This document shows, one piece after another, positions 3,871-54,882 of a stretch of DNA of 64,000 nucleotides. The translations under genes and the position numbers were made by a program. The notes beneath the pieces are model-generated. The model made no database searches and had not been told where the DNA came from. It saw only the letters and a program-made list of their open reading frames with translations. The stretch is from Candidatus Saccharimonadota bacterium (GTDB lineage Bacteria; Patescibacteriota; Saccharimonadia; Saccharimonadales; Saccharimonadaceae). Location: positions 13,943 through 77,942 of the forward strand of contig JAFWCN010000001.1 in the NCBI GenBank assembly GCA_017536895.1, given 5' to 3'. Numbering within the stretch: the first letter of the stretch is position 1; the number at the start of each line of letters is the position of its first letter.

Positions 3871-6800
3871 ATGAAATATAGAGCTGGAGAACGCCGCAAG
3901 GCTATTGAATACGAAAAAGCCATCGCGAATTGGTGGAAAAAGAACAAAACTTTTGAACAATCGGTAGAGGAAAGACCAATCGATAAGTCCTACGTTTTTT
4001 ATGATGGACCACCGTTTTTGACTGGCCTTCCTCATCATGGACACTTGCTTGGCTCCACTATTAAAGACGTTGTTGGGCGGTACCAAACTATGCTAGGGAA
4101 ACGCGTGGAGCGTGTTTGGGGTTGGGATTGTCATGGTCTTCCAGCAGAGAATTACGTAGAAAAACAATTAAATATAACTGATCGTCGTGACATCGGTACT
4201 AAATGGTCGCTTGAAGATTATATATTGACTGCTAAGAAATCAATGGAAGAAATAAGCGATGAATGGGAACACACGATCACGCGTATTGGTCGTTGGGTCG
4301 ATTTCAAAGGCGCCTATAGAACCATGGACAAAAGCTTCATGGAATCCGTCTGGTGGGCCTTCAAGCAGCTCTACGAAGCCGGCAAAATCTACGAAGGTCG
4401 TAAAGTATTAATGTACGATACTAAGTTTGCTACTCCAGTCTCTAAAGCCGAAGTCACCATGGATAATGACGCCTACCAAACCGTCACCGATCCAAGTGCG
4501 TATGTGAAGTTCAAACTTGTGCTTCAAGAATCTGGAAATGCTTCTGTTCGAGGGCTTCCGGAGGTTACGACCGAGGATGAGGGCGCGAGCCCCGTAACGA
4601 CGGGCGCGAGCGACCCGTCCCGAGAAAGAAGCATTCCAGATTCTTACATGTACATGTTGGCTTGGACTACTACACCTTGGACCTTGATGGGTAATCGCAT
4701 GCTAGCCGTTAACCCTAAAATGACTTATGTCAAGGTTAAGGTAGGAGATGAGATATTTATCTTAGCTAAACCTCGTCTCGAAGCCATTCTTAAGGACACA
4801 GACTATAAAATAATCGAAGAATTCAAAGGCAAGACTTTGGAGGGATTAACTTATGAATCTATCGATGGTACGACTTGTAAGGTTTATGCTGCCGACTTCG
4901 TCGGCGAAGAAGAAGGTACCGGTATTGTACACTGCGCCCCCGCCTACGGTGAAGACGACTATTCTTTGTATTTAGAGCACGAAGATGAAATCGAGTTCGT
5001 CGACACCCTTGATGAAAACGGCTACTATATTAAAGAGTATGCCGACAAACTCCACAAAATTGGAGTTCGTGATACTGACGAACATGGTATTCAAATCTGG
5101 GCCGGTAACAAGTTTATTGCTAAATGTATGGAAGAAAAGGGCATTATCTACAAGATCGAGTATATTCAACATGAATACCCATTTAATCCAAGAAGTAAAG
5201 AGCGCATCATGTATCGCGCCTTTCCATCCTGGTTCTTTGATGTAGATGGTCAAAAAACCATGATGCTAGCCGAAAATGAACACATTAACTGGTTCCCAGG
5301 TTACCTCAAGCATGGCCGCTTTGCCAAGAACATCGAAGCCGCCCCTGACTGGAACTTATCAAGGGATCGTTTCTGGGCTACCGCCATGCCAGTTTGGAAA
5401 GGCGATAAAGGTTCAATCAAAGTAGTCGGCAGTTACAAAGAACTTGAAGAGCTATCTGGCAAAACTCTCGAAGACTACCACCGTCCTTGGGTTGATGAAG
5501 TTGAATTCGATATTGATGGCGAACATTTCACTCGTATTGAAAAGGTCCTAGACTGCTGGTTTGAGTCTGGCTCCATGCCTTTTGCTCAGCTTCATTACCC
5601 ATTTGAAAACAAGGAGAAATTCGAACGTAACTACCCAGCTGATTTCATCGTCGAATACGTCGGCCAAGTTCGAGCTTGGTTCTACTATGTTCACGTCGTC
5701 AATACCGCCCTTGCCGAAATCGGTGCCTTTGGTGAAAAAGCCAAAAAGGGCGCCAAAAACGCCTACAAAAATGTTATTACTACCGGCACTATCGCTGGCA
5801 ACGACGGGCGCAAAATGTCTAAATCCATTGGTAACTACACCGACCCGAATAATCTCATGGATCAATACTCCGCTGACGCTTTGCGTTTCTTACTCTTATC
5901 TTCGCCAGTTTGCGCAGGTGAAGACTTTGCCTTGATCGATAAAGACGTCAACGACGTCAACCGCAAACTCGCCATGATTTGGAACGTTTACGATTTCTTC
6001 ACTACATACGCTGAAGTTGAGGGCCTATCACCGGAAGATTTTAATAATACTCTTTTGAGGAGCATATTTGCCGACGGGGCAAATACGGAGCGACCGAGCC
6101 CTGTAACGACAGGAGCGAGGGAGCGTTCCGAAAAAGAGGTATTATTAAAATCTCCTATGGACAGTTGGATAATTTCGCGTATATATGAGCTAAGAAATCA
6201 AATCACCGAAGGCATGGAAGAATATAACATTCCAAAAGCCCTAGAGAATGTTTTGCCGTTTATCGATGATCTCTCCAACTGGTTCGTTCGTCGCTCTCGT
6301 CGCCGCTTCTCCAAAAACGACGATGCTGAGGATAAAAAGCAAGCCTTTATCACCCTTCACTATGTTCTGATCTATCTTTCAAAGCTCCTCGCGCCGTTTA
6401 CTCCATTTCTAACCGAAGAACTATACCAAAAGATGACCGGCAAAGAAGAGTCCGTCCATCTGTTAGAATGGCCAAAGTCAGGTATAATTGACCAAAAGAT
6501 ATTAGACAACATGGCTCGCACCCGCCAGATTATCACCGATGCTCTTGCCCTTAGAATGCAAAAATCTGAGACAGAAGAACAGATTAAAATCCGCCAGCCT
6601 CTAGCCAAACTTACCTATGATGGTGACAAACTAGACGATTATTATGAGAAGATCATTGCCGACGAGGTAAATGTTAAAGAAGTAAAGCATGGCAAAAAGC
6701 TTACCCTCGACAAGAAGCTTACCAAGGAGCTTAAGGAAGAGGGAAGAGCCCGCGAGATCATTCGTGCCGTCCAGGCCGCGAGAAAGCATGCCGGTCTCCA

Positions 6801-6972
6801 AGTTGACGATGAGATCAAGCTCTCACTCTCCTGCGACCTACCAAAAGCCTATGAGGGCCTCATCAAAACCGAAACAGGCACCAAAGAGCTCACTAAGAAC
6901 CAAAACTATGCTCATGACGAAATCGCCAAGATAAACGGCGAAAATATCACAATTTCTCTAGAGAGAGTTTAA
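3871..6972 (+). CDS. ileS: Isoleucine--tRNA ligase (type 2-like) with two in-frame palindromic insertions
   Basis: FYDGPPFLTGLPHHGH, GWDCHGLP, WTTTPWTL, WNLSRDRFW, KMSKS. Confidence 0.97.
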   Translation: MKYRAGERRKAIEYEKAIANWWKKNKTFEQSVEERPIDKSYVFYDGPPFLTGLPHHGHLLGSTIKDVVGRYQTMLGKRVERVWGWDCHGLPAENYVEKQLNITDRRDIGTKWSLEDYILTAKKSMEEISDEWEHTITRIGRWVDFKGAYRTMDKSFMESVWWAFKQLYEAGKIYEGRKVLMYDTKFATPVSKAEVTMDNDAYQTVTDPSAYVKFKLVLQESGNASVRGLPEVTTEDEGASPVTTGASDPSRERSIPDSYMYMLAWTTTPWTLMGNRMLAVNPKMTYVKVKVGDEIFILAKPRLEAILKDTDYKIIEEFKGKTLEGLTYESIDGTTCKVYAADFVGEEEGTGIVHCAPAYGEDDYSLYLEHEDEIEFVDTLDENGYYIKEYADKLHKIGVRDTDEHGIQIWAGNKFIAKCMEEKGIIYKIEYIQHEYPFNPRSKERIMYRAFPSWFFDVDGQKTMMLAENEHINWFPGYLKHGRFAKNIEAAPDWNLSRDRFWATAMPVWKGDKGSIKVVGSYKELEELSGKTLEDYHRPWVDEVEFDIDGEHFTRIEKVLDCWFESGSMPFAQLHYPFENKEKFERNYPADFIVEYVGQVRAWFYYVHVVNTALAEIGAFGEKAKKGAKNAYKNVITTGTIAGNDGRKMSKSIGNYTDPNNLMDQYSADALRFLLLSSPVCAGEDFALIDKDVNDVNRKLAMIWNVYDFFTTYAEVEGLSPEDFNNTLLRSIFADGANTERPSPVTTGARERSEKEVLLKSPMDSWIISRIYELRNQITEGMEEYNIPKALENVLPFIDDLSNWFVRRSRRRFSKNDDAEDKKQAFITLHYVLIYLSKLLAPFTPFLTEELYQKMTGKEESVHLLEWPKSGIIDQKILDNMARTRQIITDALALRMQKSETEEQIKIRQPLAKLTYDGDKLDDYYEKIIADEVNVKEVKHGKKLTLDKKLTKELKEEGRAREIIRAVQAARKHAGLQVDDEIKLSLSCDLPKAYEGLIKTETGTKELTKNQNYAHDEIAKINGENITISLERV
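4526..4645. repeat. In-frame palindromic element A (ileS)
   Basis: Arms AAGAATCTGGAAATGCTTCT / AGAAGCATTCCAGATTCTT around core GCGAGCCCCGTAACGACGGGCGCGAGCGAC. Confidence 0.9.
6039..6150. repeat. In-frame palindromic element B (ileS)
   Basis: Arms TTTTAATAATACTCTTTT / AAAAAGAGGTATTATTAAAA around core CCGAGCCCTGTAACGACAGGAGCGAGG. Confidence 0.85.
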
Positions 6973-20296: not shown

Positions 20297-20318
20297 GGTA
20301 TAATTATACCACACAAAT

Positions 20319-20395
20319 GGGGATTTAGCTCAGCTGGCTAGAGCGTACGATTCACATTCGTAAGGTCACAGGTTCAAGCCCTGTAATCCCCACCA
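20319..20395 (+). tRNA. tRNA-Val (CAC)
   Basis: GGGGATT acceptor, anticodon arm TACGA-TTCACAT-TCGTA, GGTTCAAGCC, encoded CCA. Confidence 0.95.
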
Positions 20396-20476
20396 GAATA
20401 GGAACTGAGAAAAATCTAAAGCCTGCTTTAGATTCTTTAAAGCAGCGCCCCTGATCTGTTTAACCATGGAGTAGAT

Positions 20477-22796: not shown

Positions 22797-24989
22797 ATGG
22801 ATCCAAATAAAATATCAAAACCAGATTTTCAAGCCGCCGAACAAAAGATTCAAGAGGATCACAAGAAGGAAGTCGAAAGGCGCTTATCTCGTATGGCATG
22901 GCGTTCATTTGAGACCGATAGCTATCGTAGCAATGATTATCGTAATGAACCAATCCCGGACAATGTATTATTTGATTTTGATGAAATATTTGATAATCTA
23001 GATGAACTTGAGGACACTGATGATTTAGCTAATCAAACATCTGAACGCTTGAAAACTGCAGAAAATGCCATGCGTGATTTGATACATGAAAATTTCGTGA
23101 CTAGTGCTAGGGAATACGGTAGACTAATGAAAGCTGAATCAGATAATGAAATAATTCTCAAAAATGCCATCCTGAATGCGAAAATATTAACCGGAAACAA
23201 AACAGCGAATCGCAGCAAAAAAGCACCACTGCCAGATATAATTAGAGGTAATTTACGGAAAATTGAAGCACAAAAAGAAAAACTTGCTTATGAATCCCCC
23301 GAAAGTTATACCGTAGTTAAAGGCATGGAATTCAGGAACCATATTAAAGAAGTTCAAAACAATGAGATGGTCACCACGGCATACGTAAAAAGCAAATATG
23401 AAGAATTACGAGAAAACATGGAAAAAGGCGAACCTTCATTTATCCATGGACATCTTGGCAGTGGTAAAACAGAACTTGCCATTATGACGGCAAAGCACAC
23501 AGCTATCTCTAATGCAGCCATCAAAAACGCAAGGGAAGAATTAAAAAAACATATTGATAACCATCCAGGATTGTCTGGAAAGGAATGTCGCGACGCGTTA
23601 GGTAGGTTTTATCGACTGAATAAAACAAAACTTGAAAAAGCATTTCATGATGGCGACAAAAAAACAATCGAAAGTTATGGTCCACTAATTATCTCTGGCT
23701 CCAAAGACATCGAAACCCAAGACTTATTTGCGGATAAAACATTAAAACTGACCAAGTTTAACGGCAAAGAGCTTCTCGAACATAAGGAAGACTTAGATTC
23801 CGAGATTAAAAAATGGATGGACGAGCATCAGGGCGAACTTGATGAATTAAATGATAAAGAAAGAAACCTTAGAATTAGTGAAGAATCTCACAAAATAGTT
23901 GAATTATACAAATTAAAGAATCAAGCCTTTGGTACCGAAGTTGAAATAGTAGAAAATGCAATTTATAAGGGGATTAAGCAGGGTCGTCCAGTCATCATAG
24001 ATGAAGTAAACACAATCCCAGCAGGAATATTATTATCGCTTAACGATGTGCTGCAACGTCATCCAGGTGACCAGTGTTATATTCCAGGTGTTGGGCCAAC
24101 CGAAATAAAAGAAGGCTTCTCTGTTACCATGACCGGCAACTTGCCTTATGGTAATGTGAATTATAGAGATCGCGAAGAATTGGATCCAGCATGGGTCGAC
24201 CGTTTAAGAAGCAAAATAGAATATGATTATTTGCCAATGTCCAAAAGTGGCAAGCGCCTAGAGCAGACCAATATGGAGGGCAATGAATTATTCCAGGCAA
24301 TCATTGCATATTTGGCAGACCGGCAGGGCAATTTGGAACTTCCAGAAATGGAAAAATCATTAGATAAAATATTTGCGCTATGTCAAGTAGCACATGTCTC
24401 ACAATTAGTTTTTAAAGGTGACTGGGATGAAAGCAAAACATCTTCTGGTGATACCGTAGAAACTAACCTCGAAGCCTCAGTTTTGTCCATGCGTGGGATA
24501 TTAAGAGTATTAAAAGAATGGAATAAGGGCAGCGATAAGAATTTAGATCAAGCCTTATGGGATGGCCATATTGGACAAACAATTATACCAGAAGACCGCA
24601 AAACTCTACTCATGATTGCACGAAACTATGGCTTCTTCTCTGATAAAGATGGTTGGAAAATCAACTTTGACGACGAATCTATTAATAGCAGTATTTCTCT
24701 GAATAGAATCCATCCAGGAGCTTTTTATCATGAACCAAAGCCGCTAGAAGTATATAGCTTACGAGAAGTTGTCGATGCTGTTTATGGCAAACGCCCTGAA
24801 AGGGAAATCTACCCAGACGATATCGACTTTGAAGAAATCGAAGATTTAGCAGACGACAGCATTGACATGGAGGATCTTATCGAAGCAGAAGAAAGAATCA
24901 AAGAGACATCCAAAACCATCAAAGCTCTTGAAGTACTAGCGGAACAATGTGGTTGTAACAACACCGATAGTTCTGATGAGGCAGAATAA
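22797..24989 (+). CDS. MoxR/AAA_5-like AAA+ ATPase with large helical insertions
   Basis: Walker A GHLGSGKTE, Walker B VIIDEVN, SLNDVL, sensor MTGN, LDPAWVDR. Confidence 0.85.
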   Translation: MDPNKISKPDFQAAEQKIQEDHKKEVERRLSRMAWRSFETDSYRSNDYRNEPIPDNVLFDFDEIFDNLDELEDTDDLANQTSERLKTAENAMRDLIHENFVTSAREYGRLMKAESDNEIILKNAILNAKILTGNKTANRSKKAPLPDIIRGNLRKIEAQKEKLAYESPESYTVVKGMEFRNHIKEVQNNEMVTTAYVKSKYEELRENMEKGEPSFIHGHLGSGKTELAIMTAKHTAISNAAIKNAREELKKHIDNHPGLSGKECRDALGRFYRLNKTKLEKAFHDGDKKTIESYGPLIISGSKDIETQDLFADKTLKLTKFNGKELLEHKEDLDSEIKKWMDEHQGELDELNDKERNLRISEESHKIVELYKLKNQAFGTEVEIVENAIYKGIKQGRPVIIDEVNTIPAGILLSLNDVLQRHPGDQCYIPGVGPTEIKEGFSVTMTGNLPYGNVNYRDREELDPAWVDRLRSKIEYDYLPMSKSGKRLEQTNMEGNELFQAIIAYLADRQGNLELPEMEKSLDKIFALCQVAHVSQLVFKGDWDESKTSSGDTVETNLEASVLSMRGILRVLKEWNKGSDKNLDQALWDGHIGQTIIPEDRKTLLMIARNYGFFSDKDGWKINFDDESINSSISLNRIHPGAFYHEPKPLEVYSLREVVDAVYGKRPEREIYPDDIDFEEIEDLADDSIDMEDLIEAEERIKETSKTIKALEVLAEQCGCNNTDSSDEAE

Positions 24990-26317
24990 TGAATTGTAAT
25001 GAACTCCACAAAGACATCGCCGAGCTAAAAGCTTCTTGCGCCACTTTGCAAGAGGGCTACAACCGCATGAACAATGAACTATCCGGCAAAGCTGATTTCA
25101 GAAACAACTATCATAAAACAGAACAACTAAGTGATAAAACCCTGGAAAAATACCTCTCAGATTTTACTGAAAAAAACCCCGAATTGTTCTCATGGAAGTT
25201 AGATAAAAAATTAGAGTATTTCAAAGGTCTTTTTGGCAAACAGATTGAAGGAGCAACCATAACTAAAAGAACGTCAAATGGCAACATAATAGTATTGTCA
25301 GATAGCCCATATCCGGGAGATAACTGTATGTTTTATGAATACAGCTTGGACGACTTCGATAACTTAGTTCTCAAAAGAAGTTCTTTCGAAATAAAAGATA
25401 AGCGAGTTTTAGTTCAGACAGTTTTTACGCCATTGCCAGATGGGGCGGTTCTCGTTGGTGGAGCAAATATACTATACGAGATTAAAGAAGATGACAGAAG
25501 TAAAACGCATTTATCTGATTATAAATCAGAAATATTTGTGGATAAGCCAAGAGCAATCAGCGCCGTTGCTCCTTTACCAAACGGAGGTATACTAATCGGA
25601 GGAGAAGACGGCGAAATATGTGAAGGCAGAAAGAATCCACACACTAAAAGGTGGGAAATAGTTAAATCTCTTGAAAGAGAAGAATATTCTCCTCCAGTTA
25701 CATGTATTACTGAAATGCCTGACGGAGCAATGCTAGTGGCTTGTGAGAAATACATCTACGAGTGTAGAGAAAATGACGAAGGGGATTGGGAACTAGGTGA
25801 AGGAATAAATGGTTTCGTGACCCATGATGGATATGAAGACGAAGTTAAAAGCATATTCCAACTGTCTGACGAAAAGATGCTGATTATTGGGTGTAAAGAC
25901 GCTATATATGAATACAACAAGAATTCAGAAGGAGACTGGGAAATCGGAGAAAAAAGAATAGGCCCACCAAACATAAATCCATATTTCGTCACCCAATTAC
26001 CAAATAATGAAGTTATAATACTGGGTGAAGGGCAGACATTTGTATACAAAAAAAATCGTAACGGATGGACTTTAATTGAGGATGAAACAATAAGCGACGC
26101 TTTCGAAAAAGAATGTGACGAATGGCCAGATTATATTATACCGCTTGAGAGTAACAAAATTGTTGTAGGGGGGGTGAAATGGAAGGAAATTGAAGATGGA
26201 TATCCAGAATCAGAGGATACGGTAATGCTATTTAGCCAGCCAGAACAAACAGTAGAAGGGTTAAAACAACACCTAGACATCATTATTGAAAAAGGAGATT
26301 CTAATGAATTGCAATGA
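24989..26317 (+). CDS. Variable beta-propeller-like protein 1
   Basis: Conserved N-terminal MNCNEL..NPELF.W module; about 7 LPxGx(L/I)(L/I)xG repeats; C-terminal LKQHLDIIIEKG. Confidence 0.75.
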   Translation: MNCNELHKDIAELKASCATLQEGYNRMNNELSGKADFRNNYHKTEQLSDKTLEKYLSDFTEKNPELFSWKLDKKLEYFKGLFGKQIEGATITKRTSNGNIIVLSDSPYPGDNCMFYEYSLDDFDNLVLKRSSFEIKDKRVLVQTVFTPLPDGAVLVGGANILYEIKEDDRSKTHLSDYKSEIFVDKPRAISAVAPLPNGGILIGGEDGEICEGRKNPHTKRWEIVKSLEREEYSPPVTCITEMPDGAMLVACEKYIYECRENDEGDWELGEGINGFVTHDGYEDEVKSIFQLSDEKMLIIGCKDAIYEYNKNSEGDWEIGEKRIGPPNINPYFVTQLPNNEVIILGEGQTFVYKKNRNGWTLIEDETISDAFEKECDEWPDYIIPLESNKIVVGGVKWKEIEDGYPESEDTVMLFSQPEQTVEGLKQHLDIIIEKGDSNELQ

Positions 26318-27479
26318 ACTCCGCAAAAGTATCGACGAGCTAAAATCTTCTTGCGCCACTTTACAAGAGAGCTACAACCGCATGAACAATGAACTATCCG
26401 GCAAAGCTGATTTCAGAAACAACTATCATAAAACGGCACAACTAAGCGACAAAATCTTAGAAAGATACATTCCCAACTTCATAGAAAAGAACCCTGAACT
26501 ATTTGATTGGCAACTAGGGAAAAAGATAGAAGGTTTTAAGGATATGAGCAACGAGGATATCCGACGAGTTACATCTGCAGAATGTCTATCTGATGGGAAT
26601 TTGCTTGTCACAGGTTTCCCCAAAGGAAGTAGGCGACCATATCTTTACATATGCCAATTTGATGAGGCTAACAATATTGAAACAATAGATGAAATTAGTA
26701 TAGCCGGCATTAAAGGCTATAGAACCGCTAGCTATGCCACATTGACAAGCACACAATTGACGGAAGATACGGTATTAATTGGCGGCGGAGACGGATTATT
26801 ATGCGAATGCATAAAAGACGAAACTGGAGATTGGCAGTTAGGTGAAAAAATTGATGGCATCAGTGACAACCATGACATAATGGCTATTGGGGCGGTTTCT
26901 GATAAAAAAGTTTTAGTCAGCACTAATCTCGGCTTTGTCTATGAGTATCTCAAAGATGAAGCTGGAAGATGGGTAAAAAAGAGTTTAATAGCGTCTTACC
27001 TTGAAGGAGTTATAAAAACAATTACTAGATTACCGGATAACAATATACTACTATGTGGCCTTAACGCTCTATATGAATACAAAAAAAATCAGGAAGGGGA
27101 GTGGACTATTATCGACCAACGTGCCAGCTCCTCAGATACAGCTCGAGACGAAATAGATTTTACATATTCAGTTGAATTATCCGACGACAAGATACTGCTA
27201 GGGGAAAGATTTGGCCCTCTCTATGAATTTAGTAAAGACTCAGACGATAAATGGTCATTAAACGAAATTGACGATAAGCCCATCTGCGGTGAATATAAAG
27301 AAATATATGGTTCTACTCCTGAATATATACTAAAACTCTCCGACGATAAACTTTTGGCTGTGGGGGAAAATAATAATCATGAACGCGTTTTGCATGAACT
27401 TATAAAACCATCACTAATCCCACTAGAGACCTTAAAACAAAGCTTAAATAGAATCATTGAAAAAGGAGAAACCCAATGA
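26304..27479 (+). CDS. Variable beta-propeller-like protein 2
   Basis: Same N- and C-terminal modules, about 6 repeats; ATG 26304 after AAAGGAG. Confidence 0.75.
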   Translation: MNCNELRKSIDELKSSCATLQESYNRMNNELSGKADFRNNYHKTAQLSDKILERYIPNFIEKNPELFDWQLGKKIEGFKDMSNEDIRRVTSAECLSDGNLLVTGFPKGSRRPYLYICQFDEANNIETIDEISIAGIKGYRTASYATLTSTQLTEDTVLIGGGDGLLCECIKDETGDWQLGEKIDGISDNHDIMAIGAVSDKKVLVSTNLGFVYEYLKDEAGRWVKKSLIASYLEGVIKTITRLPDNNILLCGLNALYEYKKNQEGEWTIIDQRASSSDTARDEIDFTYSVELSDDKILLGERFGPLYEFSKDSDDKWSLNEIDDKPICGEYKEIYGSTPEYILKLSDDKLLAVGENNNHERVLHELIKPSLIPLETLKQSLNRIIEKGETQ

Positions 27480-30937: not shown

Positions 30938-31627
30938 ATGTTAGAGTTAAAGGATATTAGTTGTAGTGTCAAAGGTGGGTCTAGGGGCAAAATCCTAGAC
31001 CATATTTCGCTCCGTATCAAAAAAGGTAGCTTCACGGTTATCACCGGTCCCAACGGCAGTGGCAAATCCACTCTCGCCGATATTATTATGGGCATCAAAA
31101 CTCCCACTACTGGTAAAATCTTTCTAGAGAGTAGAGACATCACAAACCAAACTATCACCGAACGCGCTGAGGATATCGCCTACTCTTTTCAACAACCAGT
31201 CAAATTTAAAGGCATCACCGTTTACGACCTTCTAAATATCGCCAGCGGAGAATTAATCGCACCCGAAGAAGCTAGCAAACATCTAAAAAAAGTCGGCCTA
31301 AATCCCGAGGATTATCTCACAAGGGAGATTAACGACAAACTTTCTGGTGGGGAATTAAAGCGTATCGAAATCGCCTCCGTGCTCGCCCGTCCTGCTAAAC
31401 TCTTCATTTTTGACGAGCCCGAAGCCGGTATCGACCTCTGGAGTTTTGATAATCTCATCAAGATTTTTAAAAAGCTAAAAAAAGAGCAAAAAACCATCAT
31501 CATTATCTCTCACCAAGAAAAAATTCTAAAACTCGCTGACGAAATCATCATCCTTGAAAAAGGAAAGATTAAATCAAAAGGCACTCCGAGTGAAATCCTG
31601 CCACAAATCAAAGGAGCCAAACCATGA
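30938..31627 (+). CDS. sufC: SufC/SmsC-like ABC ATPase
   Basis: GPNGSGKST, LSGGELKRIE, IFDEPEAGID; upstream of a SufB-like gene. Confidence 0.85.
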   Translation: MLELKDISCSVKGGSRGKILDHISLRIKKGSFTVITGPNGSGKSTLADIIMGIKTPTTGKIFLESRDITNQTITERAEDIAYSFQQPVKFKGITVYDLLNIASGELIAPEEASKHLKKVGLNPEDYLTREINDKLSGGELKRIEIASVLARPAKLFIFDEPEAGIDLWSFDNLIKIFKKLKKEQKTIIIISHQEKILKLADEIIILEKGKIKSKGTPSEILPQIKGAKP

Positions 31628-32646
31628 ACCTAACCGATGAAGAGAAACAGATCTTCTGTGAAGTACTAGCCGAAAATGATATTTTGAGGGAATCCGGAGC
31701 CTGGCAAGGCGAGGACGAGCGCGCGAGCCCCGTGGCGACGGGCGCGAGCGACGCGGCCCGAAAAAGATCATTTCGGCTAGCCTACAAAGGAGCCTACAAC
31801 TTTCGCGTTAACGGCAAATCTGTCGGCCGAAACTCCACCAAAAACATCGATGTGAAACCTAAAACCGACAGATCCGGCCTCGACATCACTATCAAACCAG
31901 GCACCAAAAACGAACAAGTCCACATTCCCGTCGCCATCAGTGCCACTGGTATCAAAGAAGCAGTTTATAACGATTTTTACATTGGCGATAACGCCGAGGT
32001 TACCATCATCGCCGGCTGCGGTATCTATAATTGTGGCCCTACCGACTCAGTCCACGACGGCATCCATCGTTTTTACGTTGGCAAGAATGCCAAAATCAAA
32101 TACATCGAAAAGCACTACGGTTTTGGTCCCGGTAGGGGAGGAAAGATCCTTAACCCCGTCACCGAAGTGCATTTACAAGAAAACTCCGAAGCTAGTCTAG
32201 AACTCGAACAAATCAAAGGCGTCGACTCCACTATCCGCAAAACTACTGCCGATCTCGATAAAAACACTAAACTCATCGTCAAAGAACGCCTATTCACTCA
32301 CGGACGTCAAACTGCCGAATCAATCTACGAAGTAGCATTAAACGGCAAAGATTCCACCACCGACATCGCCTCTCGTTCCATCGCGCAAGATTTATCCAAA
32401 CAATCTTTCAAAGCCACCATCATCGGCAACAACAAATGCCGTGGTCACTCCGAGTGCGATGCCATCCTCATGGACGAAGCCGAGGTTCATGCTATCCCCG
32501 CGCTAGATGCTAAAACCAAAGATGCCGAACTAATCCACGAAGCCGCCATCGGCAAAATCGCGAGCGACCAAATCAAAAAGTTAATGACCCTCGGCCTCAC
32601 CAAAAAACAAGCCGAGTCAAAAATCATCAACGGCTTTCTTCATTAA
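31624..32646 (+). CDS. sufB: SufB/SufD (SmsB-like) Fe-S scaffold with an in-frame palindromic insertion
   Basis: IIAGCG, YIEKHYG, SECDAIL, IHEAAIGKI..LMTLGL..IINGFL. Confidence 0.85.
   Translation: MNLTDEEKQIFCEVLAENDILRESGAWQGEDERASPVATGASDAARKRSFRLAYKGAYNFRVNGKSVGRNSTKNIDVKPKTDRSGLDITIKPGTKNEQVHIPVAISATGIKEAVYNDFYIGDNAEVTIIAGCGIYNCGPTDSVHDGIHRFYVGKNAKIKYIEKHYGFGPGRGGKILNPVTEVHLQENSEASLELEQIKGVDSTIRKTTADLDKNTKLIVKERLFTHGRQTAESIYEVALNGKDSTTDIASRSIAQDLSKQSFKATIIGNNKCRGHSECDAILMDEAEVHAIPALDAKTKDAELIHEAAIGKIASDQIKKLMTLGLTKKQAESKIINGFLH
31666..31780. repeat. In-frame palindromic element C (sufB)
   Basis: Arms CTAGCCGAAAATGAT / ATCATTTCGGCTAG; core GCGAGCCCCGTGGCGACGGGCGCGAGCGACGCGGCCC. Confidence 0.88.
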
Positions 32647-32766: not shown

Positions 32767-34965
32767 ATGTTCAAAAGAATCGTCAAAAGAGACGGCAAAA
32801 TCGTAAAATTTGATCCCGAAAAAATCACCGAGGCCATCGCGAAAGCTGGTCTTGCTACCGAAGAATTCAAATACGACCGAGCCAAAGCCTTAACCGACAA
32901 AGTCATCAACCGTGCCGACGAAGAGATTACTACTCGTACTCCTAACGTCGAACAAATCCAAGACATCGTCGAAGAAGTTTTGATGGAATCCAGTTTTAAG
33001 AAGACTGCTAGGGAATACATCCGCTATCGTCAAGAACGCTCTCGTCGTCGCGAAGCTAAATCTGATCTTATGATGATTTATCGTACGATTAGCCATGCTG
33101 ACGCTTCTGAGGATTCTGACGTCAAAAGGAGCAATGCTAACGTCGATGGTAATTCTGCCATGGGTAAAATGCTTCAATTTGGCGCGGAAGGCTCCAAAGT
33201 CTTCGCAAAATCATTATTGCTTCGTCCTGACATTGCCGCCGCCCATGACAATGGCGACATTCATATTCACGACCTAGATTTTTATGCTACTGGTACTTTG
33301 ACTTGTTGTCAGTCCGACCCATTCGTATTGTTTGAAAATGGCGGATTTAACACCGGCCACGGTCACCTTCGCACTCCGAACTCTATTGGCTCTTATGGCG
33401 CTCTCGCTGCCATCCTCCTTCAAGCCAATCAGAACGAACAACATGGTGGTCAATCCATCCCGAATTTTGATTATGCTATGGCTCCGGGCGTCAATAAATC
33501 ATTTAGAAAAGCCTTAAAGCGCAACCTCAAAAAATACAACAAATTCGCCGGTAAGAAACTTGACCTCGAAGTCAAAGACACTTACGAATATGGCAATGAC
33601 GATAAATTGAAAAAGGCAAAATGGCCAAAGGAAGTCATCGAGGCTTCAAACGAGGACGTCGAGCGTGAAACTCTCCAAGCCATGGAAGGCTTCGTCCACA
33701 ACCTCAACACCATGCATTCTCGCGCCGGTGCTCAGGTGCCATTTACCTCAATTAACTTCGGTACCGATACCAGTCCAGCTGGCCGACTAGTTTCAAAAGA
33801 TTTGCTTGAAGCTACCGCCAATGGTCTCGGCAAGGGCGAAACTCCAATCTTCCCAATTAGTATCTTCAAGGTCAAAGAAGGCGTCAACTACAATCCAGAA
33901 GATCCAAACTACGACCTCTTCAAGCGTTCGATGGAAGTTTCTGCTAAGCGCTTGTTCCCGAACTTCTGTTTTATCGATGCTCCATATAATCTCAAATACT
34001 ACAAAAAGGGTGACTATCGCACCGAGATTGCTACCATGGGTTGTCGCACGCGTGTTTTTGCCAGTATCTTCCCAGAATCCGATGGTATCGTCACTGGCCG
34101 CGGTAACTTATCTTTCACCACTATTAACCTAGTCCGTATCGGCATCAAACACGGTATTTGTTTGAAAGAGCGCAAAGAAGCCGACTGGGATGGATTTTAC
34201 CACGAATTAGACGAAAAGCTTGAGCTCGTCAAAGATGAACTCTTAGAACGTTTTGAATTCCAAGCTAATCAGCACGTCCGCAACTTCCCATTTCTCATGG
34301 GGCAAGGGAACTGGTTTGGCTCCGAGAAGCTCGGCTGGAATGATACATTAAGAGATGTCATCAAACACGGCACTCTGTCTATCGGCTTTATCGGTCTCGC
34401 CGAGACACTAGTCGCTATGACCGGCAAACACCACGGCGAAGACGAAGAAGCTCGCGAACTTGGTCTCGACATCGTCAGCCATATGCGTGAGAAGTGTGAC
34501 GGTTTCAGCAAGAAATATAAACTCAACTTCAGCCTTCTTGCTACTCCAGCTGAAGGTATCGCTGGTCGCTTTACCAAGATTGACCGCAAAGAATTTGGCA
34601 AAATCAAAGGCGTCACCGATAGGGAATTCTATACCAATTCCTTCCATGTGCCAGTTTATTACCCAATCAGCGCTTTCGAGAAAATCGAAATTGAAGCTCC
34701 ATATCACAATCTCTGTAATGCGGGCCATATTACCTATATCGAACTAGATGGTGACCCATCACAAAATATCGCTGCCTTTGAATCAGTCATCCGTAAAATG
34801 CACGACGAAGGTATCGGTTATGGTTCCGTTAACCATCCAGTTGACCGCGACCCAATCTGTGGCTTCTCCGGTATCATCACCGGTGACCGTTGTCCACACT
34901 GTGGCCGCCTCGAAGGTGATGTCCCGTTCGAGAAAGTATGTAATTGTGCGAAAGGTAATGCATAA
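32767..34965 (+). CDS. nrdD: Class III (anaerobic) ribonucleoside-triphosphate reductase, lacking the glycyl-radical tail
   Basis: ATP-cone, HIHDLDFY, TCCQ, HNLNTMHSRAGAQVPF, TMGCRTR, GRGNLSF, ATPAEG, YTNSFH. Confidence 0.93.
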   Translation: MFKRIVKRDGKIVKFDPEKITEAIAKAGLATEEFKYDRAKALTDKVINRADEEITTRTPNVEQIQDIVEEVLMESSFKKTAREYIRYRQERSRRREAKSDLMMIYRTISHADASEDSDVKRSNANVDGNSAMGKMLQFGAEGSKVFAKSLLLRPDIAAAHDNGDIHIHDLDFYATGTLTCCQSDPFVLFENGGFNTGHGHLRTPNSIGSYGALAAILLQANQNEQHGGQSIPNFDYAMAPGVNKSFRKALKRNLKKYNKFAGKKLDLEVKDTYEYGNDDKLKKAKWPKEVIEASNEDVERETLQAMEGFVHNLNTMHSRAGAQVPFTSINFGTDTSPAGRLVSKDLLEATANGLGKGETPIFPISIFKVKEGVNYNPEDPNYDLFKRSMEVSAKRLFPNFCFIDAPYNLKYYKKGDYRTEIATMGCRTRVFASIFPESDGIVTGRGNLSFTTINLVRIGIKHGICLKERKEADWDGFYHELDEKLELVKDELLERFEFQANQHVRNFPFLMGQGNWFGSEKLGWNDTLRDVIKHGTLSIGFIGLAETLVAMTGKHHGEDEEARELGLDIVSHMREKCDGFSKKYKLNFSLLATPAEGIAGRFTKIDRKEFGKIKGVTDREFYTNSFHVPVYYPISAFEKIEIEAPYHNLCNAGHITYIELDGDPSQNIAAFESVIRKMHDEGIGYGSVNHPVDRDPICGFSGIITGDRCPHCGRLEGDVPFEKVCNCAKGNA

Positions 34966-35612
34966 TGGAGCTTGGCAAAAATCGGTCTGGGGCATTTCGG
35001 AGCGCGGCAGCGCGAGAATTAGCGCGCGAGCCCCGTGGCGACGGGCGCGAGCGACGCGGCCCCAGACCGAATTTTGCAAGCTCTCTTGATAGGATTTCCC
35101 GTCAGTTAGATACCCCCGAGGGTTACATTCGTTTGAGTGGGCCCTTGGAGCACGACAACATCGTCAACGGCGACGGTCTTCGCGCTGTCCTCTGGACCCA
35201 AGGCTGTCCTAACCACTGTCCCGGTTGCCAAAATCCCGAAACATGGGACTATGAATCCGGCTATCTCGCAAAAATTGACGACCTTAAGGAAGAACTAAAA
35301 ACTTTCAAAGGTCAAGCCGGTCTCACCTTCTGTGGCGGGGAACCATTTGTTCAGGCTAAGGCCTGTAAGGAAATTGCCGACTGGTGTCATGAGGAATTAG
35401 GTTGGAATATTTGGAGCTTCTCCGGCTTTACTTATGAAACCATCAAAGAATACGGTAGAGAACCTTGGGAATTTCTTAAGTCACTTGATGCTTTGATTGA
35501 CGGTCCTTTCATTTTATCACAGCGTGATTTAAGCCTCAAATATCGTGGCTCCAAGAATCAACGTCTCCTACATCTAGAACGAAGTAAAGGAAAAATTTTA
35601 TCAATTGAATAA
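34965..35612 (+). CDS. nrdG: Anaerobic RNR activating radical-SAM enzyme with N-terminal palindromic insertion
   Basis: QGCPNHCPGCQNPETW (CxxxCxxC), GLTFCGGEPF, RGSKNQR. Confidence 0.93.
   Translation: MELGKNRSGAFRSAAARELAREPRGDGRERRGPRPNFASSLDRISRQLDTPEGYIRLSGPLEHDNIVNGDGLRAVLWTQGCPNHCPGCQNPETWDYESGYLAKIDDLKEELKTFKGQAGLTFCGGEPFVQAKACKEIADWCHEELGWNIWSFSGFTYETIKEYGREPWEFLKSLDALIDGPFILSQRDLSLKYRGSKNQRLLHLERSKGKILSIE
34968..35083. repeat. In-frame palindromic element D (nrdG)
   Basis: Arms GAGCTTGGCAAAAATCGGTCTGGGGC / GCCCCAGACCGAATTTTGCAAGCTC; core identical to element C over about 38 bp. Confidence 0.9.
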
Positions 35613-36514: not shown

Positions 36515-38023
36515 ATGACCAAACAAACTACCTCAGGTTCAGAACGTATTGAACGGGCTGTTGAAATGGCGAAAAAAGCTCATGCGGGGCAATCTCGTAA
36601 AACTGGTGAACCCTACATTATTCATCCGCTTGCAGTCAAGAAAATCCTCGAAGAATGGGGTATGGATGAAGATACTATCATTGCCGGAATACTCCACGAT
36701 ACCGTCGAAGACACCAGCCTTTCACTCGATGATATCAAAAAAGAGTTCGGCTCTTCGGTTGCTTTTTTGGTTGACGGCGTGACCAAGCTGTCTACTGCTC
36801 GTAATGGTATGCGCGACATCGATACCTATCTTCCAGCTACCAGGGACAACTTCCTCAGATTAATGATTGCGCTAGGCGATGATATCCGAGTTCTCATCAT
36901 CAAACTTGCCGATCGCCTTCATAATCTTCGCACTCTTTCCGCTCTTCCTCCCGAGAAGCAAAAGAAAATCGCCAAAGAATCCCTTGAAGTATTCGCTCCG
37001 CTCGCCGACCGACTTAACATGGGGTTACTTCGCGTTGAAATGGCGGACCTCGCCTTTAAGTACGTTGACCCTAAACGCTTTGATGAGCTAAAAACACTAA
37101 TTGAAAAATACAATAAAGCCGCCGAAAAAACTCTTACCAAAATCAAAGCTGAAATTTCTGCTGCTCTAAAAAAAGAGAAAATCGAGTTTTCTATCTCTGG
37201 TCGCGTGAAGTCAGTTTACTCGCTTCACAAGAAACTCGCCAAACACAATCAAAACATCAACGAAATCTATGATTTGACCGCTTTAAGAATCATCGTGAAC
37301 GATATCACAGATTGTTATCTGACTCTCGGTATCATCCATTCGCTCTATATGCCAATGAACGGCCGCATCAAGGATTATATCGCAATGCCAAAACAAAACG
37401 GTTACCAATCGCTTCACACTACGGTCATTACCAAAGATAAGAAAATCGTTGAAATCCAGATTCGCACCAAAGAAATGCATGAATATGCCGAACATGGGTT
37501 AGCGGCTAGCTTCTATTATAATGAACAAAAGCTCACTGAAAACTACAAAAAAGGGAAGATTGAGCATTTGCCTACTAACCTCCTCTGGATTTCCGAACTC
37601 CAAATGACTGCAGCGAAGCTACGCGAAGGTAAAAAAGTAGACCTCAAAAAGCTCAAACTCAACCTCTTTGCCGATAAAATATTTGTCTATACTCCTAAAG
37701 GCGATATTATCGATCTCCCAGCTGGTGCCATGCCACTTGATTTTGCTTATCGTCTCCATTCAGAAATTGGCGATCACGTCGTTGGCGTAAAAATTAACGG
37801 CAAGATGAGTAACCTGAACAAAAAATTAGAACAGGGCGATGTCGTTGAGATCCTCACCTCTAAAAATCAGACCCCAAAACAAACTTGGCTCGATAAAATA
37901 TTTACTCCACACGCTCGTGCTAAACTAATGCGAGCCTTGAATATATCAGCTCGTACTGCCGCCGGCGAGACTATCGAACGCCCAAAAAAGAAACGAAAAC
38001 CCCGCAAAGACACTAATTCTTGA
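36515..38023 (+). CDS. rel: RelA/SpoT homolog (HD + synthetase + TGS)
   Basis: PYIIHP, ILHDTVEDT, IKLADRLHN, GRVKS, PKQNGYQSLHT, EIQIRT, TPKG..DFAY. Confidence 0.93.
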   Translation: MTKQTTSGSERIERAVEMAKKAHAGQSRKTGEPYIIHPLAVKKILEEWGMDEDTIIAGILHDTVEDTSLSLDDIKKEFGSSVAFLVDGVTKLSTARNGMRDIDTYLPATRDNFLRLMIALGDDIRVLIIKLADRLHNLRTLSALPPEKQKKIAKESLEVFAPLADRLNMGLLRVEMADLAFKYVDPKRFDELKTLIEKYNKAAEKTLTKIKAEISAALKKEKIEFSISGRVKSVYSLHKKLAKHNQNINEIYDLTALRIIVNDITDCYLTLGIIHSLYMPMNGRIKDYIAMPKQNGYQSLHTTVITKDKKIVEIQIRTKEMHEYAEHGLAASFYYNEQKLTENYKKGKIEHLPTNLLWISELQMTAAKLREGKKVDLKKLKLNLFADKIFVYTPKGDIIDLPAGAMPLDFAYRLHSEIGDHVVGVKINGKMSNLNKKLEQGDVVEILTSKNQTPKQTWLDKIFTPHARAKLMRALNISARTAAGETIERPKKKRKPRKDTNS

Positions 38024-38120
38024 ATAGAATCCGCTAGATTGGTGGTTTGTTTGCGTGAAGCGCTACTATTTATAGAGCAAGCGCAAAAAACCGCCAAGAT
38101 AGCGGATTCTAACAAGAATT
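38015..38120. repeat. Palindromic element abutting the tRNA-Thr 3' end
   Basis: AATTCTTG..AGAATCCGCTA / TAGCGGATTCT..CAAGAATT; homologous to 54422-54530. Confidence 0.85.
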
Positions 38121-38195
38121 GGAGCCGTTGACTGGGCTTGAACCAGCGACCTGCTCGTTACGAATGAGCTGCTCTACCAACTGAGCTACAACGGC
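38120..38195 (-). tRNA. tRNA-Thr (CGT)
   Basis: Reverse complement GCCGTTGTAGCTCAGTTGG..CTCATTCGTAACGAG..GGTTCAAGCC..CAACGGCTCCA. Confidence 0.95.
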
Positions 38196-41462: not shown

Positions 41463-41485
41463 AGTATGATATAATACATAGAGAT

Positions 41486-41562
41486 GGGTCGCTAGCTCAG
41501 TTGGCTAGAGCGCCTCGTTTACACCGAGGAGGTCAGGAGTTCGAGCCTCTTGCGACCCACCA
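41486..41562 (+). tRNA. tRNA-Val (TAC)
   Basis: GGGTCGC acceptor, CCTCG-TTTACAC-CGAGG, AGTTCGAGCC, CCA. Confidence 0.95.
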
Positions 41563-41750
41563 TAGAAAATACCCAACCATCTGGTTGGGTATTTTCTATA
41601 AATGTGTTGTAAAGAGGCAAGAACTCCGTAGGAGTTCGTTCGCGGTAGGAGCCGAGTAAAAATCTAAAACTTGTTTTAGATTTTTTGAGGCGACGCCCCG
41701 CGAGAGTGTTTTCGCTTTAGCGAAAACACGATGCCTCTTGCGACCCACCA
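41545..41750. repeat. 18-bp direct repeat of the tRNA-Val 3' end flanking a multi-hairpin element
   Basis: GCCTCTTGCGACCCACCA at 41545-41562 and 41733-41750, with four hairpins between. Confidence 0.88.
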
Positions 41751-54421: not shown

Positions 54422-54530
54422 AATTTCATAAATAAAATCCGTCAGATTGGTGGTTTCTTCGAGTGAAGCGCTATTATTGATAGAGCGAACGAGAAAAACC
54501 GCCAAAATGGCGGATTTTATTATGAAATTT
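54422..54530. repeat. Palindromic element abutting the tmRNA 3' end
   Basis: AATTTCATA..AAAATCCG / CGGATTTT..TATGAAATT; shares GATTGGTGGTTT, GTGAAGCGCTA and AAAAACCGCCAA with 38015-38120. Confidence 0.85.
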
Positions 54531-54882
54531 GGTGGAGCTGCCGGATACTGCCTCCGGGTCCGAAATACCACCTGGTTACAATTCTACGTACATAGTTTTC
54601 TGTTTCATCTTGGCAAATATCATCAGCTGCAGAAAACGAAACTGACAAAAGCCATGGCTATTTTTCGTGTCATTTTTCGCCAATCAAACGACCTTAATCC
54701 CGTTGTATGATAATTCCAGCCCTACGGAATCTCAAGCTGAAACCAGCCTAGAAATAATTAGGCATAAGCCGGCATGTAAGCTACATGCGCGGTTGTTGCT
54801 TTTTTAGCATTTATTAATACTTACGGTATTCAATCGGTACGCCTTGTAACTGTTAATATCCCGTCTAAGCTTGATCAGCCCC
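54530..54882 (-). ncRNA. ssrA: tmRNA; predicted tag (A)AKKATTAHVAYMPAYA
   Basis: 5' GGGGCTGAT..TTAGACGGG; 3' CCGGCAGCTCCACCA; internal ORF after ATAAAT ending AYA-stop. Confidence 0.92.

Follow-up and report, generated by a model that had tools for sequence, protein, structure and literature searches.

A replication-polar family of fold-back insertions with locus-specific stems, read through in housekeeping genes of Saccharibacteria

The window, i.e., the whole 64,000-nucleotide stretch of DNA that was analyzed, carries a 1033-codon ileS gene on the forward strand (positions 3871 to 6972), identified by the Pfam models tRNA-synt_1 and Anticodon_1 and by source names. The gene holds two hairpin-forming insertions, copies A and B, and is open through both. 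Copy A (4526 to 4645, + strand) is in frame, six codons upstream of LAWTTTPW, in agreement with its initial placement just before the WTTTPW motif of the IleRS editing domain. It consists of a left arm (4526 to 4549), a GA dinucleotide (4550 to 4551), a core (4552 to 4621), a second GA (4622 to 4623) and a right arm (4624 to 4645); its predicted fold as DNA has an energy of -33.7 kcal/mol (z = -5.9), and its site is empty in most relatives. Copy B (6039 to 6150, + strand), whose core is of type 3, lies in frame directly before the P(L/M)DxWI motif. It is near-identical in L060 and L061 despite a 17 to 20% nucleotide difference across ileS, and its site is empty in G195 and G007.

Three further copies lie on the + strand of the window. 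Copy C (31666 to 31780) is in frame near the N-terminus of the ORF at 31624 to 32646, a candidate sufB; its empty alleles in G034, G072 and G105 have GATGATTTTGAGGTTCC at the junction. Copy D (34968 to 35085) begins right after the ATG of an NrdG-like ORF (34965 to 35612). Copy E (61089 to 61207) is in frame in the N-terminal tail of a GyrA-like ORF (61062 to 63659), and the corresponding site is empty in G034 and holds other inserts in G195 and G072. The five elements of the initial annotation were all found at its positions, including the arm starts that it quoted. All five fold as single-stranded DNA beyond shuffled sequences, with z scores from -4.6 to -7.9 and none of 200 shuffles matching them.

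Genome-wide, we counted some 38 hairpin copies in 836 kb, five of them within the window, with lengths in a narrow range of about 115 to 122 nt (around 120 nt). Hairpin bounds were mapped for 37 copies, of which 34 fall within ORFs that are 150 aa or longer and that all remain open. The stretch at 4526 to 4645 is thus a member of a high-copy, GC-rich family of fold-back insertions, whose home is a gut or rumen clade of Saccharibacteria. The copies sit in variable protein loops without regular spacing, and the hosts read the cores in five of the six strand and frame combinations; the unused sixth has stops in 28 of 35 cores. Judged from these reading frames, the copies are DNA-level elements that the hosts would translate as extra loops of 30 to 40 residues in housekeeping proteins.

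Presence is patchy among close species, with copy numbers ranging from about 4 (G007) to about 38 (the source genome, G000). A metagenome scan with IleRS, in which the best relatives had 73% amino acid identity, yielded a single core match in 80 loci, which shows the family to be restricted to the close clade; these loci did not enter the junction comparisons. A search of Rfam 15 returned no match on the element at the gathering score or at a suggestive E value, and a full-text literature search found no account of elements like these from Saccharibacteria or from CPR bacteria. The family is apparently undescribed.

The common core of about 70 nt forms a three-way junction, in which two small hairpins stand on a basal stem bordered by GA/GA mismatches. 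In the core alignment, 89.8% of cells are paired, compared with 72.8% in shuffles, and 69 cells have changed on both sides, compared with 24.9 in shuffles; one-sided G-T states are almost absent from this covariation. Some core subfamilies have UNCG- and GNRA-like loops. A block change, exactly of the template-switch type, separates the core variants GCGCGAGCCCCGT and GCGCTCGCCCCGT. In three independent cases, a second hairpin family is nested exactly in the apical loop, at CCCGTAAC^GACGGG.

Element orientation followed GC skew, taken as a proxy for the replication strand, in 36 of 37 copies in G000 and in 68 of 85 copies in seven relatives. With respect to the host genes, 14 copies are co-oriented and 20 opposite. 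This showed that the strand of the element is tied to the replication strand and not to gene direction. These orientations and the frame usage led us to reject a function at the mRNA level, in which the hairpin would be a regulatory structure, an RNase target, an intron-like insert or a translational bypass site. The stable covarying structure and the loops resembling UNCG and GNRA would suit such a role, but with 20 antisense copies, five frames in use and the host frame always preserved across the insert, no Rfam match and covariation almost devoid of G-U intermediates, we regard it as highly improbable.

The initial annotation had described outer arms that are unrelated between copies and pair almost perfectly within each copy. 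Self-complementarity was borne out, the outer 20 nt of the two arms having a median complementarity of 0.88, and the observation as a whole was partly confirmed. Between copies, however, 'unrelated' proved too strong a word: the median arm identity is 0.55, against 0.50 for random 20-mers, and 20% of the pairs of copies lie above the 95th percentile of the random distribution. Copy-specific arms, which still pair, are found in the outer 3 to 10 bp. In contrast, the inner 10 to 15 nt are subfamily-specific: many left arms share a loose ..GAAYCTGGAAAT..YTTTYC|GA pattern, and within a core subfamily the inner 12 to 15 nt or so are clearly homologous, as with GAATACTCTCGTTC in type 3. The few fixed arm subfamilies that would speak against private arms therefore exist for the inner part of the arm only, and this subfamily consensus implies that part of the stem travels with the core. 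Even between copies with cores at least 90% identical, arm identity is 0.57, and the copies C17:65699 and C15:2829 combine identical cores with unrelated arms.

Such arms had been proposed to arise by inverted duplication of the target sequence, a proposal that bears on the alleles lacking the element. In ileS, identity to the closest relatives is about 83% for DNA and 90% for amino acids, and at this divergence the junctions are read through diverged, length-variable loops. Compared with empty alleles, the net insertion is 26 to 43 aa, with a median of 34 aa (102 nt), roughly one arm below the hairpin length. The latter is usually no multiple of 3, yet every host ORF is intact, and at most sites the frame is disrupted when the hairpin is deleted in full. 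The clearest case is nrdG (copy D), where the left arm, read as MELGKNRS, lines up codon by codon with the N-terminus native to the empty relatives. There the left arm corresponds to native codons 2 to 8, and the 96-nt insert is the core plus the right arm, its inverted copy. In G072, the same site carries a remnant of decay by microhomology deletion. The comparison of empty alleles thus yields one native arm at nrdG; elsewhere, the picture is ambiguous or both arms are missing.

The gyrA site (copy E) looks native on its right arm. When each arm was restored and scored against orthologues, the element-left arm fared better at 11:7 and then at 11:5 (11 of 16), which is not significant, and the direction of the host gene did not predict the native side (9:7). 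Site 25 has an insert of only 84 nt, with gap-free alignment of both flanks. Sites 14, 18 and 32 have a surplus over empty alleles that nearly equals or exceeds the full hairpin, and both arms look foreign there. Matches of empty alleles to the left junction of the element showed no general excess of microhomology (8.55 versus 8.2 of 16), the only outliers being site 34 (13 of 16, probably a remnant) and site C. No consistent direct repeat at the hairpin ends was seen by eye; copy C14:82838 has ATTGTG on both sides. Inverted target duplication is thus favored by nrdG and by the insertion sizes, and sites 14, 18 and 32 speak against it.

Across related species, the stem at one orthologous site can recur around the same core, around that core flipped in place, or around a core of another type. 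In-place flips were found at sites 0, 1, 14, 16, 21 and 25, where the core is 80 to 100% reverse complementary, position-wise arm identity is still 59 to 86%, and GC skew in the gene sense does not change. Sites 8, 18 and 34 have retained their arms around a core of a different type, and the arms of both ileS copies are conserved across species that have different cores. These comparisons show that the outer stem is a property of the locus and not of the core.

The stems are also strongly conserved. Orthologous hairpins are 95.7% identical, compared with 81 to 89% in the flanks. Past either end of the hairpin, identity falls to that of the flanks within 15 nt, a short transition that led us to reject recombination tracts as the source of the high identity. 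Of 34 double changes in stems, 29 are compensatory, and in the remaining 5 both sides changed and the pair was broken. Pairing in the stem is therefore actively kept, as expected from the second proposal of the initial annotation, that hairpin pairing is under selection inside coding sequence. The near-neutral rate expected under pure gene conversion is in tension with this conservation, which points towards selection. Inverted duplication and pairing selection each have support, and neither suffices by itself.

Selection for a function would likewise be compatible with such strong conservation, which extends to the arms. The hairpins might be host DNA signals polar to replication, such as single-strand priming or loading sites, rather than selfish insertions, a role with which the strand polarity, the conservation above that of coding flanks and the covarying core structure are consistent. 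We consider it very unlikely given the patchy presence of the hairpins (about 4 copies in G007 versus about 38 in G000), the persistence of flipped copies in relatives, the existence of decay remnants, and a location in variable protein loops instead of at regular spacing.

Alternatively, the whole hairpin of about 120 nt, arms included, might be mobile in the manner of a MITE or a Rickettsia palindromic element (RPE), its arms diverging in place under selection for pairing while the core is more constrained. The consensus within inner arms, the narrow length range, the absence of both arms from empty alleles at sites 14, 18 and 32, and compensatory changes among orthologues argue for this view; in copy A, the cores of G000 and G017 are identical and the arms differ at 4 positions, all compensated. 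It must nevertheless contend with copies that have identical cores and unrelated arms, with orthologous arms that evolve more slowly than the flanks, which makes saturating divergence in place implausible, and with ileS arms common to species whose core types differ. The hairpin length that is usually not divisible by 3 in intact ORFs and the native left arm in nrdG also run counter to it, and we hold it to be unlikely.

Another possibility is that the core homes to the tips of short inverted repeats that were already present and form DNA hairpins on the lagging-strand template, so that both outer half-arms would be native and the stem would later be lengthened by templated correction. This would account for cores that flip or are replaced within a persisting stem, for the nesting of the second hairpin family in the apical loop, and for the gap-free flanks and 84-nt insert at site 25. 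Several empty alleles also conform to it: at ileS A, G034 has a palindrome with a 9-bp stem (P = 0.003); at site 12, G125 has GAAATGCATTTC; and at ileS B, G195 has a near-palindrome. Overall, however, palindromes are weakly enriched in empty alleles (mean best stem of 4.9 versus 4.4 bp), the half-sites of the G034 palindrome are in the opposite order to the G000 arms, and native 20-bp inverted repeats were seen in no empty allele. We consider such homing unlikely.

No match to Y1 transposase (Y1_Tnp, PF01797), for which control genomes gave matches, or to reverse transcriptase (RVT_1) was found in the 99%-complete genome, which leaves the family without a candidate enzyme among the two families searched. 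The account that we favor, to which we give an even chance, is a locus-stemmed fold-back family spread by replication-coupled template switching on single-stranded DNA, with neither an element-encoded nor a TIR-recognizing transposase involved. The nascent strand would copy the core from another copy. Its 3' end would then snap back through the self-complementary ends of the core, copy some 20 nt of the upstream sequence newly synthesized in the same strand to yield the inverted arm, and return to the original template at a variable point. Later intrastrand switching of the same kind could correct arm mismatches, flip the core or replace it with another, and the survivors would be only those insertions that fell in tolerant loops and left the host frame open. 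In a variant that we put forward tentatively, the stems are long-lived hairpins owned by the locus, and the GC-rich cores are protein-free mobile DNA whose spread, flipping and replacement at the hairpin tips rely on replication-coupled template switching alone, with hairpin integrity kept by selection because a broken palindrome in an essential gene would be worse than a perfect one. If so, the core would be a self-propagating, structure-based element without an enzyme of its own.

In the 369 genomes of the genus, which represent hundreds of species, one and the same site can be met filled, empty, decayed, flipped or with a swapped core. Together with the clear strand polarity and the lack of a candidate enzyme, these varied states make the mechanism testable by comparative genomics and plasmid assays. 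The family enlarges and diversifies essential proteins of CPR bacteria, among them tRNA synthetases, GyrA and NrdG, and, if unrecognized, it would mislead gene calling, alignment trimming and phylogenomics in such ultra-small organisms.

Among known systems, IS608-type single-strand transposition has a replication-fork orientation bias. Like the REPIN/REP-RAYT elements and the IS200/IS605-derived PATEs, the present elements are hairpin-forming, nonautonomous repeats of about 100 nt with a strong bias relative to the fork (36/37 and 68/85). Unlike these products of HUH Y1 transposition, they come without a Y1 transposase gene, lie inside genes rather than between them, have arms that are not conserved between copies, and show no fixed tetra- or pentanucleotide target. 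Quasipalindrome template-switch mutagenesis (the Ripley model, studied in Escherichia coli by the Lovett laboratory) makes imperfect inverted repeats perfect. There, intrastrand switching changes multiple bases in one event and can also flip the spacer; a block change of this kind separates the pair GCGCGAGCCCCGT/GCGCTCGCCCCGT. It is a single-locus mutational process, and we know of no case in which it has carried a defined core of 70 nt to dozens of loci.

Classical bacterial MITEs, such as Correia/NEMIS and those treated in a review (PMC10969869), are small, noncoding, hairpin-capable and multicopy, features that the present elements share. MITEs have TIRs common to all copies, whereas the outer arms here are copy-specific (identity of 0.55 to 0.57 versus 0.50), and where we looked there was no evidence of the direct target-site duplication or the identifiable parent IS that mark MITEs.

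The RPEs, reportedly described by Ogata et al. in 2000, are the closest analogue. To our knowledge, Rickettsia is essentially the one textbook example of in-frame selfish DNA inside genes, and how it spreads was never resolved. In both families, a reduced genome carries numerous short palindromic repeats (about 100 to 150 bp) that lie in essential protein-coding genes without breaking the frame and would add a peptide segment to the product (here judged from open ORFs); no transposase is known for either. RPEs are also covered in the MITE review (PMC10969869). The likeness drawn here is one of features. The host phylum, here Saccharibacteria, is unrelated, and we suggest that the family works like RPEs and do not file it as a member. 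The saccharibacterial copies have only the core in common, each site having an outer stem of its own, and their orientation is bound to the replication strand. Cores are inverted or exchanged in situ, and different species carry insertions at the same sites. We know of no report of any of these traits for RPEs.

Copies A (4526-4645) and B (6039-6150) of the family-1 element, a DNA hairpin of about 120 nt with site-specific outer arms and a shared GC-rich core, both lie on the + strand in ileS, A inside an intact ORF of 1033 aa (3871-6972) and B also within a + strand ORF. Copies C (31666-31780), D (in nrdG, 34968-35085) and E (in a gyrA-like gene, 61089-61207) are likewise + strand copies within + strand ORFs. 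The layout of copy A is AAGAATCTGGAAATGCTTCTGTTC-GA-core-GA-GAAAGAAGCATTCCAGATTCTT, with a GC-rich core of 70 nt, and it ends six codons ahead of LAWTTTPW, in agreement with the initial annotation, which had placed it just before the IleRS WTTTPW motif. Directly 3′ of it (4646-4660) stands a 6-nt tandem duplication, TACATG TACATG, encoding YMYM where relatives have one Y(L/F/M); it may be a scar of insertion. For none of the five window copies did any of 200 dinucleotide shuffles fold as stably, as single-stranded DNA, as the copy itself (z-scores between -4.6 and -7.9). A search of the whole genome (G000; 836 kb, 17 contigs, 99% complete; the window is C7:13943-77942) with an iterated nhmmer profile built on the core retrieved about 38 copies. 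By the source organisms recorded for relatives of its IleRS, the genome belongs to Candidatus Saccharibacteria.

Each copy forms a long hairpin (-68 to -99 kcal/mol with RNA parameters), 115 to 122 nt in total where the ends are well defined. The core consists of a basal GGGG(C)/(G)CCCC stem, usually flanked by symmetric GA/GA mismatches, that carries two hairpins; there are several core subfamilies, block changes, for example from GCGCGAGC to GCGCTCGC, and three copies with an additional ~24 nt in hairpin 1. When this three-helix structure was scored on an alignment of 25 cores, 89.8% of the cells were paired, versus 72.8% in shuffles and 31 to 47% in slid controls, and 69 cells had changed on both sides, versus 24.9 in shuffles (0 of 500 shuffles reached 69). 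One-sided G-T/G-U states were almost absent, which fits a constraint at the DNA rather than the RNA level. No Rfam family matched the element.

The arms are self-complementary within each copy, as first noted (complementarity of 0.88). That they are unrelated between copies was not entirely borne out: the outer 20 nt have a median identity of 0.55, versus 0.50 for random 20-mers, 20% of copy pairs exceed the random 95th percentile, and a loose GAAYCTGGAAAT..YTTTYC pattern adjoining GA recurs in many left arms. In type 3 copies the inner ~15 nt of the arm (GAATACTCTCGTTC) are plainly homologous, and it is the next, outermost 3 to 9 bp that are copy-specific yet paired (CCC/GGG, AAAAA/TTTTT, TTG/CAA, AGATTTT/AAAATCT). 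Even where two copies have cores of 90% identity or more, their arms are just 0.57 identical, and the copies at C17:65699 and C15:2829 combine an identical core with unrelated arms.

The window holds other repeats. A pair of ~100-nt repeats, 80% identical (family D6; 38017-38118 and 54425-54526), adjoins a tRNA gene (38123-38195) and the tmRNA gene (54530-54882), and the initial annotation listed it as a further palindromic family, its arms differing from copy to copy. At 20310-20451 and at 41477-41699 (D11/D13) a tRNA gene precedes a hairpin that resembles a terminator, AAAAATCTAAAGCCTGCTTTAGATT.., the two hairpins being similar. Adjacent paralogous genes share a direct repeat of 238 nt at their 5′ ends (24987-25224 and 26302-26539, 81% identical; D1/D4), and a weaker third copy lies near 27604.

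Among the 37 genomic copies with mapped hairpin bounds, 34 lie inside ORFs of at least 150 aa, all of them open, 14 in the direction of the host gene and 20 opposite to it. Of the six possible combinations of strand and frame, hosts use five to read the core (e.g., ..EGASPVTTGASDPS.., ..AREPRGDGRERR.., ..DGSLAPVVTG.., ..RRSRPSPRGERANSRAAALRN...), and in the sixth, unused one 28 of 35 cores contain stop codons. As the core is read in five frames, it is the nucleic acid that is conserved. Survival in frame acts as a filter on element copies; judging from the sequence, the inserts are read through by their hosts and presumably translated.

To compare occupied with empty alleles, we used all of G007, part of G011 and two close ileS contigs, together with the loci orthologous to every coding site in the five genomes nearest to G000 among 369 of the genus, retrieved with chimeric flank queries. 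Relative to genomes without the element, the net extra length is 26 to 43 codons (median 34, i.e., 102 nt), about one arm shorter than the hairpin, and deletion of the whole hairpin disrupts the reading frame at most sites. The cleanest site is nrdG, where empty relatives begin M(N)TDW(H/K)KIS followed by LEK(I/L)(S/A)KQLETPEGY, and G000 has MELGKNRS, 32 codons and then LDRISRQLDTPEGY; the left arm is thus the native N-terminus (TTGGCAAAAATCGGTCT versus TTGGAAAAAAATATCA), and the 96-nt insert is the core plus an inverted copy. The empty allele of G011 at ileS A (GAATCAGAGAATGCT followed by TAT) matches the left arm GAATCTGGAAATGCT, that of G034 at site C has GATGATTTTGAGGTTCC opposite TGATATTTTGAGGGAATCC of G000 (the arm end and first core bases), and the length at site 12 fits exactly one native arm. 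These loci speak for the inverted duplication of target sequence proposed initially, but at sites 14, 18 and 32 the 111 to 126 extra nt amount to nearly the entire hairpin. Site 25 has an insert of only 84 nt, with gap-free alignment of both flanks, and scoring for a kept left versus a kept right arm gave 11:5, which is not significant. Inverted duplication is therefore supported, not proven, and the return points look variable. Some apparently empty alleles are remnants of the element: nrdG of G072 (L070) begins ATGGAG followed by CGACGCGGCCCCAGATCGAATTTTGCAAGCTC, retaining only the 3′ core end and right arm after deletion of the left arm and most of the core at a GAGC microhomology, and G195 (L212-type locus) still has TTTTCGAGAC at site 34.

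Comparison of occupied loci showed that the stems belong to the locus. At sites 0, 1, 14, 16, 21 and 25 a relative holds the G000 core flipped in place (0.80 to 1.00 identical once reverse-complemented, about 0.45 when compared strand for strand), while the arms stay in position, 0.59 to 0.86 identical at five of the six sites, the gene-left arm of site 0 not having been recovered; GC skew in the gene sense does not change. Sites 8, 18 and 34 have retained their arms (0.8 to 0.9) around another core type, and across a dozen species the arms of ileS A and B remain recognizable (xESGNxS; xNTxx) around at least four core types. Exactly in the family-1 apical loop, between CCCGTAAC and GACGGG, three independent copies have an inserted hairpin of a second, unrelated family (..GACGGCGCAACGAAGCGAGAGAAATCCGAGC..GCTCGGATTTC..): C7:4742-4950 and C16:3553-3730 of G000, both outside the window, and the ileS B copy of the relative's locus L061, at about 12.1 kb. 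A direct repeat, GACGG, accompanies these nested hairpins and resembles a target duplication of 5 bp.

In 12 orthologous pairs (1520 nt) the hairpin is 95.7% identical, versus 83% at 1 to 15 nt into the flanks, 89% at 16 to 30 nt and 81 to 86% beyond, indicating that the hairpin, arms included, is specifically conserved. Recombination tracts are excluded as the cause by the drop to 83% already at 1 to 15 nt. Over 16 orthologous pairs, 675 of 755 stem pairs are unchanged; 34 changed on both sides, 29 of which still pair and 5 no longer do, and one-sided changes kept the pair in 17 cases and broke it in 29. Double changes are about 8 times more frequent than independence predicts, an excess that independent insertions with target-derived arms among the "orthologues" would mimic. 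The other initial proposal, selection for pairing inside coding sequence, has the conserved hairpins and the compensatory changes in its favor. Conversion alone does not explain why substitutions in the arms are so rare; their rarity points to selection, either for the integrity of the hairpin or for some function. One copy (C4:11420-11494) has flanks identical at 543 of 543 positions to G125 (C17, ~22.1-22.7 kb), a genome otherwise about 25% different, which suggests very recent gene transfer, or contig cross-contamination or mis-binning.

In 36 of 37 G000 copies the strand designated top coincides with whichever strand is richer in C over the surrounding 20 kb. GC skew, with a magnitude of 0.01 to 0.28 around the copies and at least 0.10 on all contigs but C7, serves here as a proxy for replication strand. 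Host-gene direction does not predict orientation. In seven relatives 68 of 85 copies follow the rule, most weakly in G072 (14 of 23), and the flipped copies are the exceptions to it. Contig-wide skew in G000 is very strong, up to ±0.26 (~0.04 on C7, 0.08 to 0.26 on the other contigs), so that the leading strand is unusually easy to tell from the lagging strand in this Saccharibacteria genome.

Neither PF01797 (Y1 transposase) nor PF00078 (reverse transcriptase) matched in G000, and control genomes did give matches. On the close relative's contig, at L061:1409-3747, 6 to 9 kb upstream of ileS, a gene with a weak RVT_1 match lies beside a CdiA_C toxin-domain gene. Family 1 is a DNA-level, replication-polar, structure-conserving element family with locus-specific stems and cores that move, flip and swap. 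It may spread and be maintained by fold-back synthesis, in which a replicating strand switches template within itself or to another copy; this would yield inverted duplicates of the flanks, net inserts of varying size, core block changes and in-place flips, and would accommodate both the strand bias and the lack of an enzyme from the two families searched.

A search of the full-text literature found no description of such elements for Saccharibacteria or CPR bacteria. Classical MITEs, REPIN/RAYT systems and IS200/IS605 elements were each ruled out by a tested defining feature. By analogy, the closest counterpart is the Rickettsia palindromic element, likewise in-frame, palindromic, multicopy and without a transposase, although membership of family 1 in the Rickettsia palindromic elements is unlikely.
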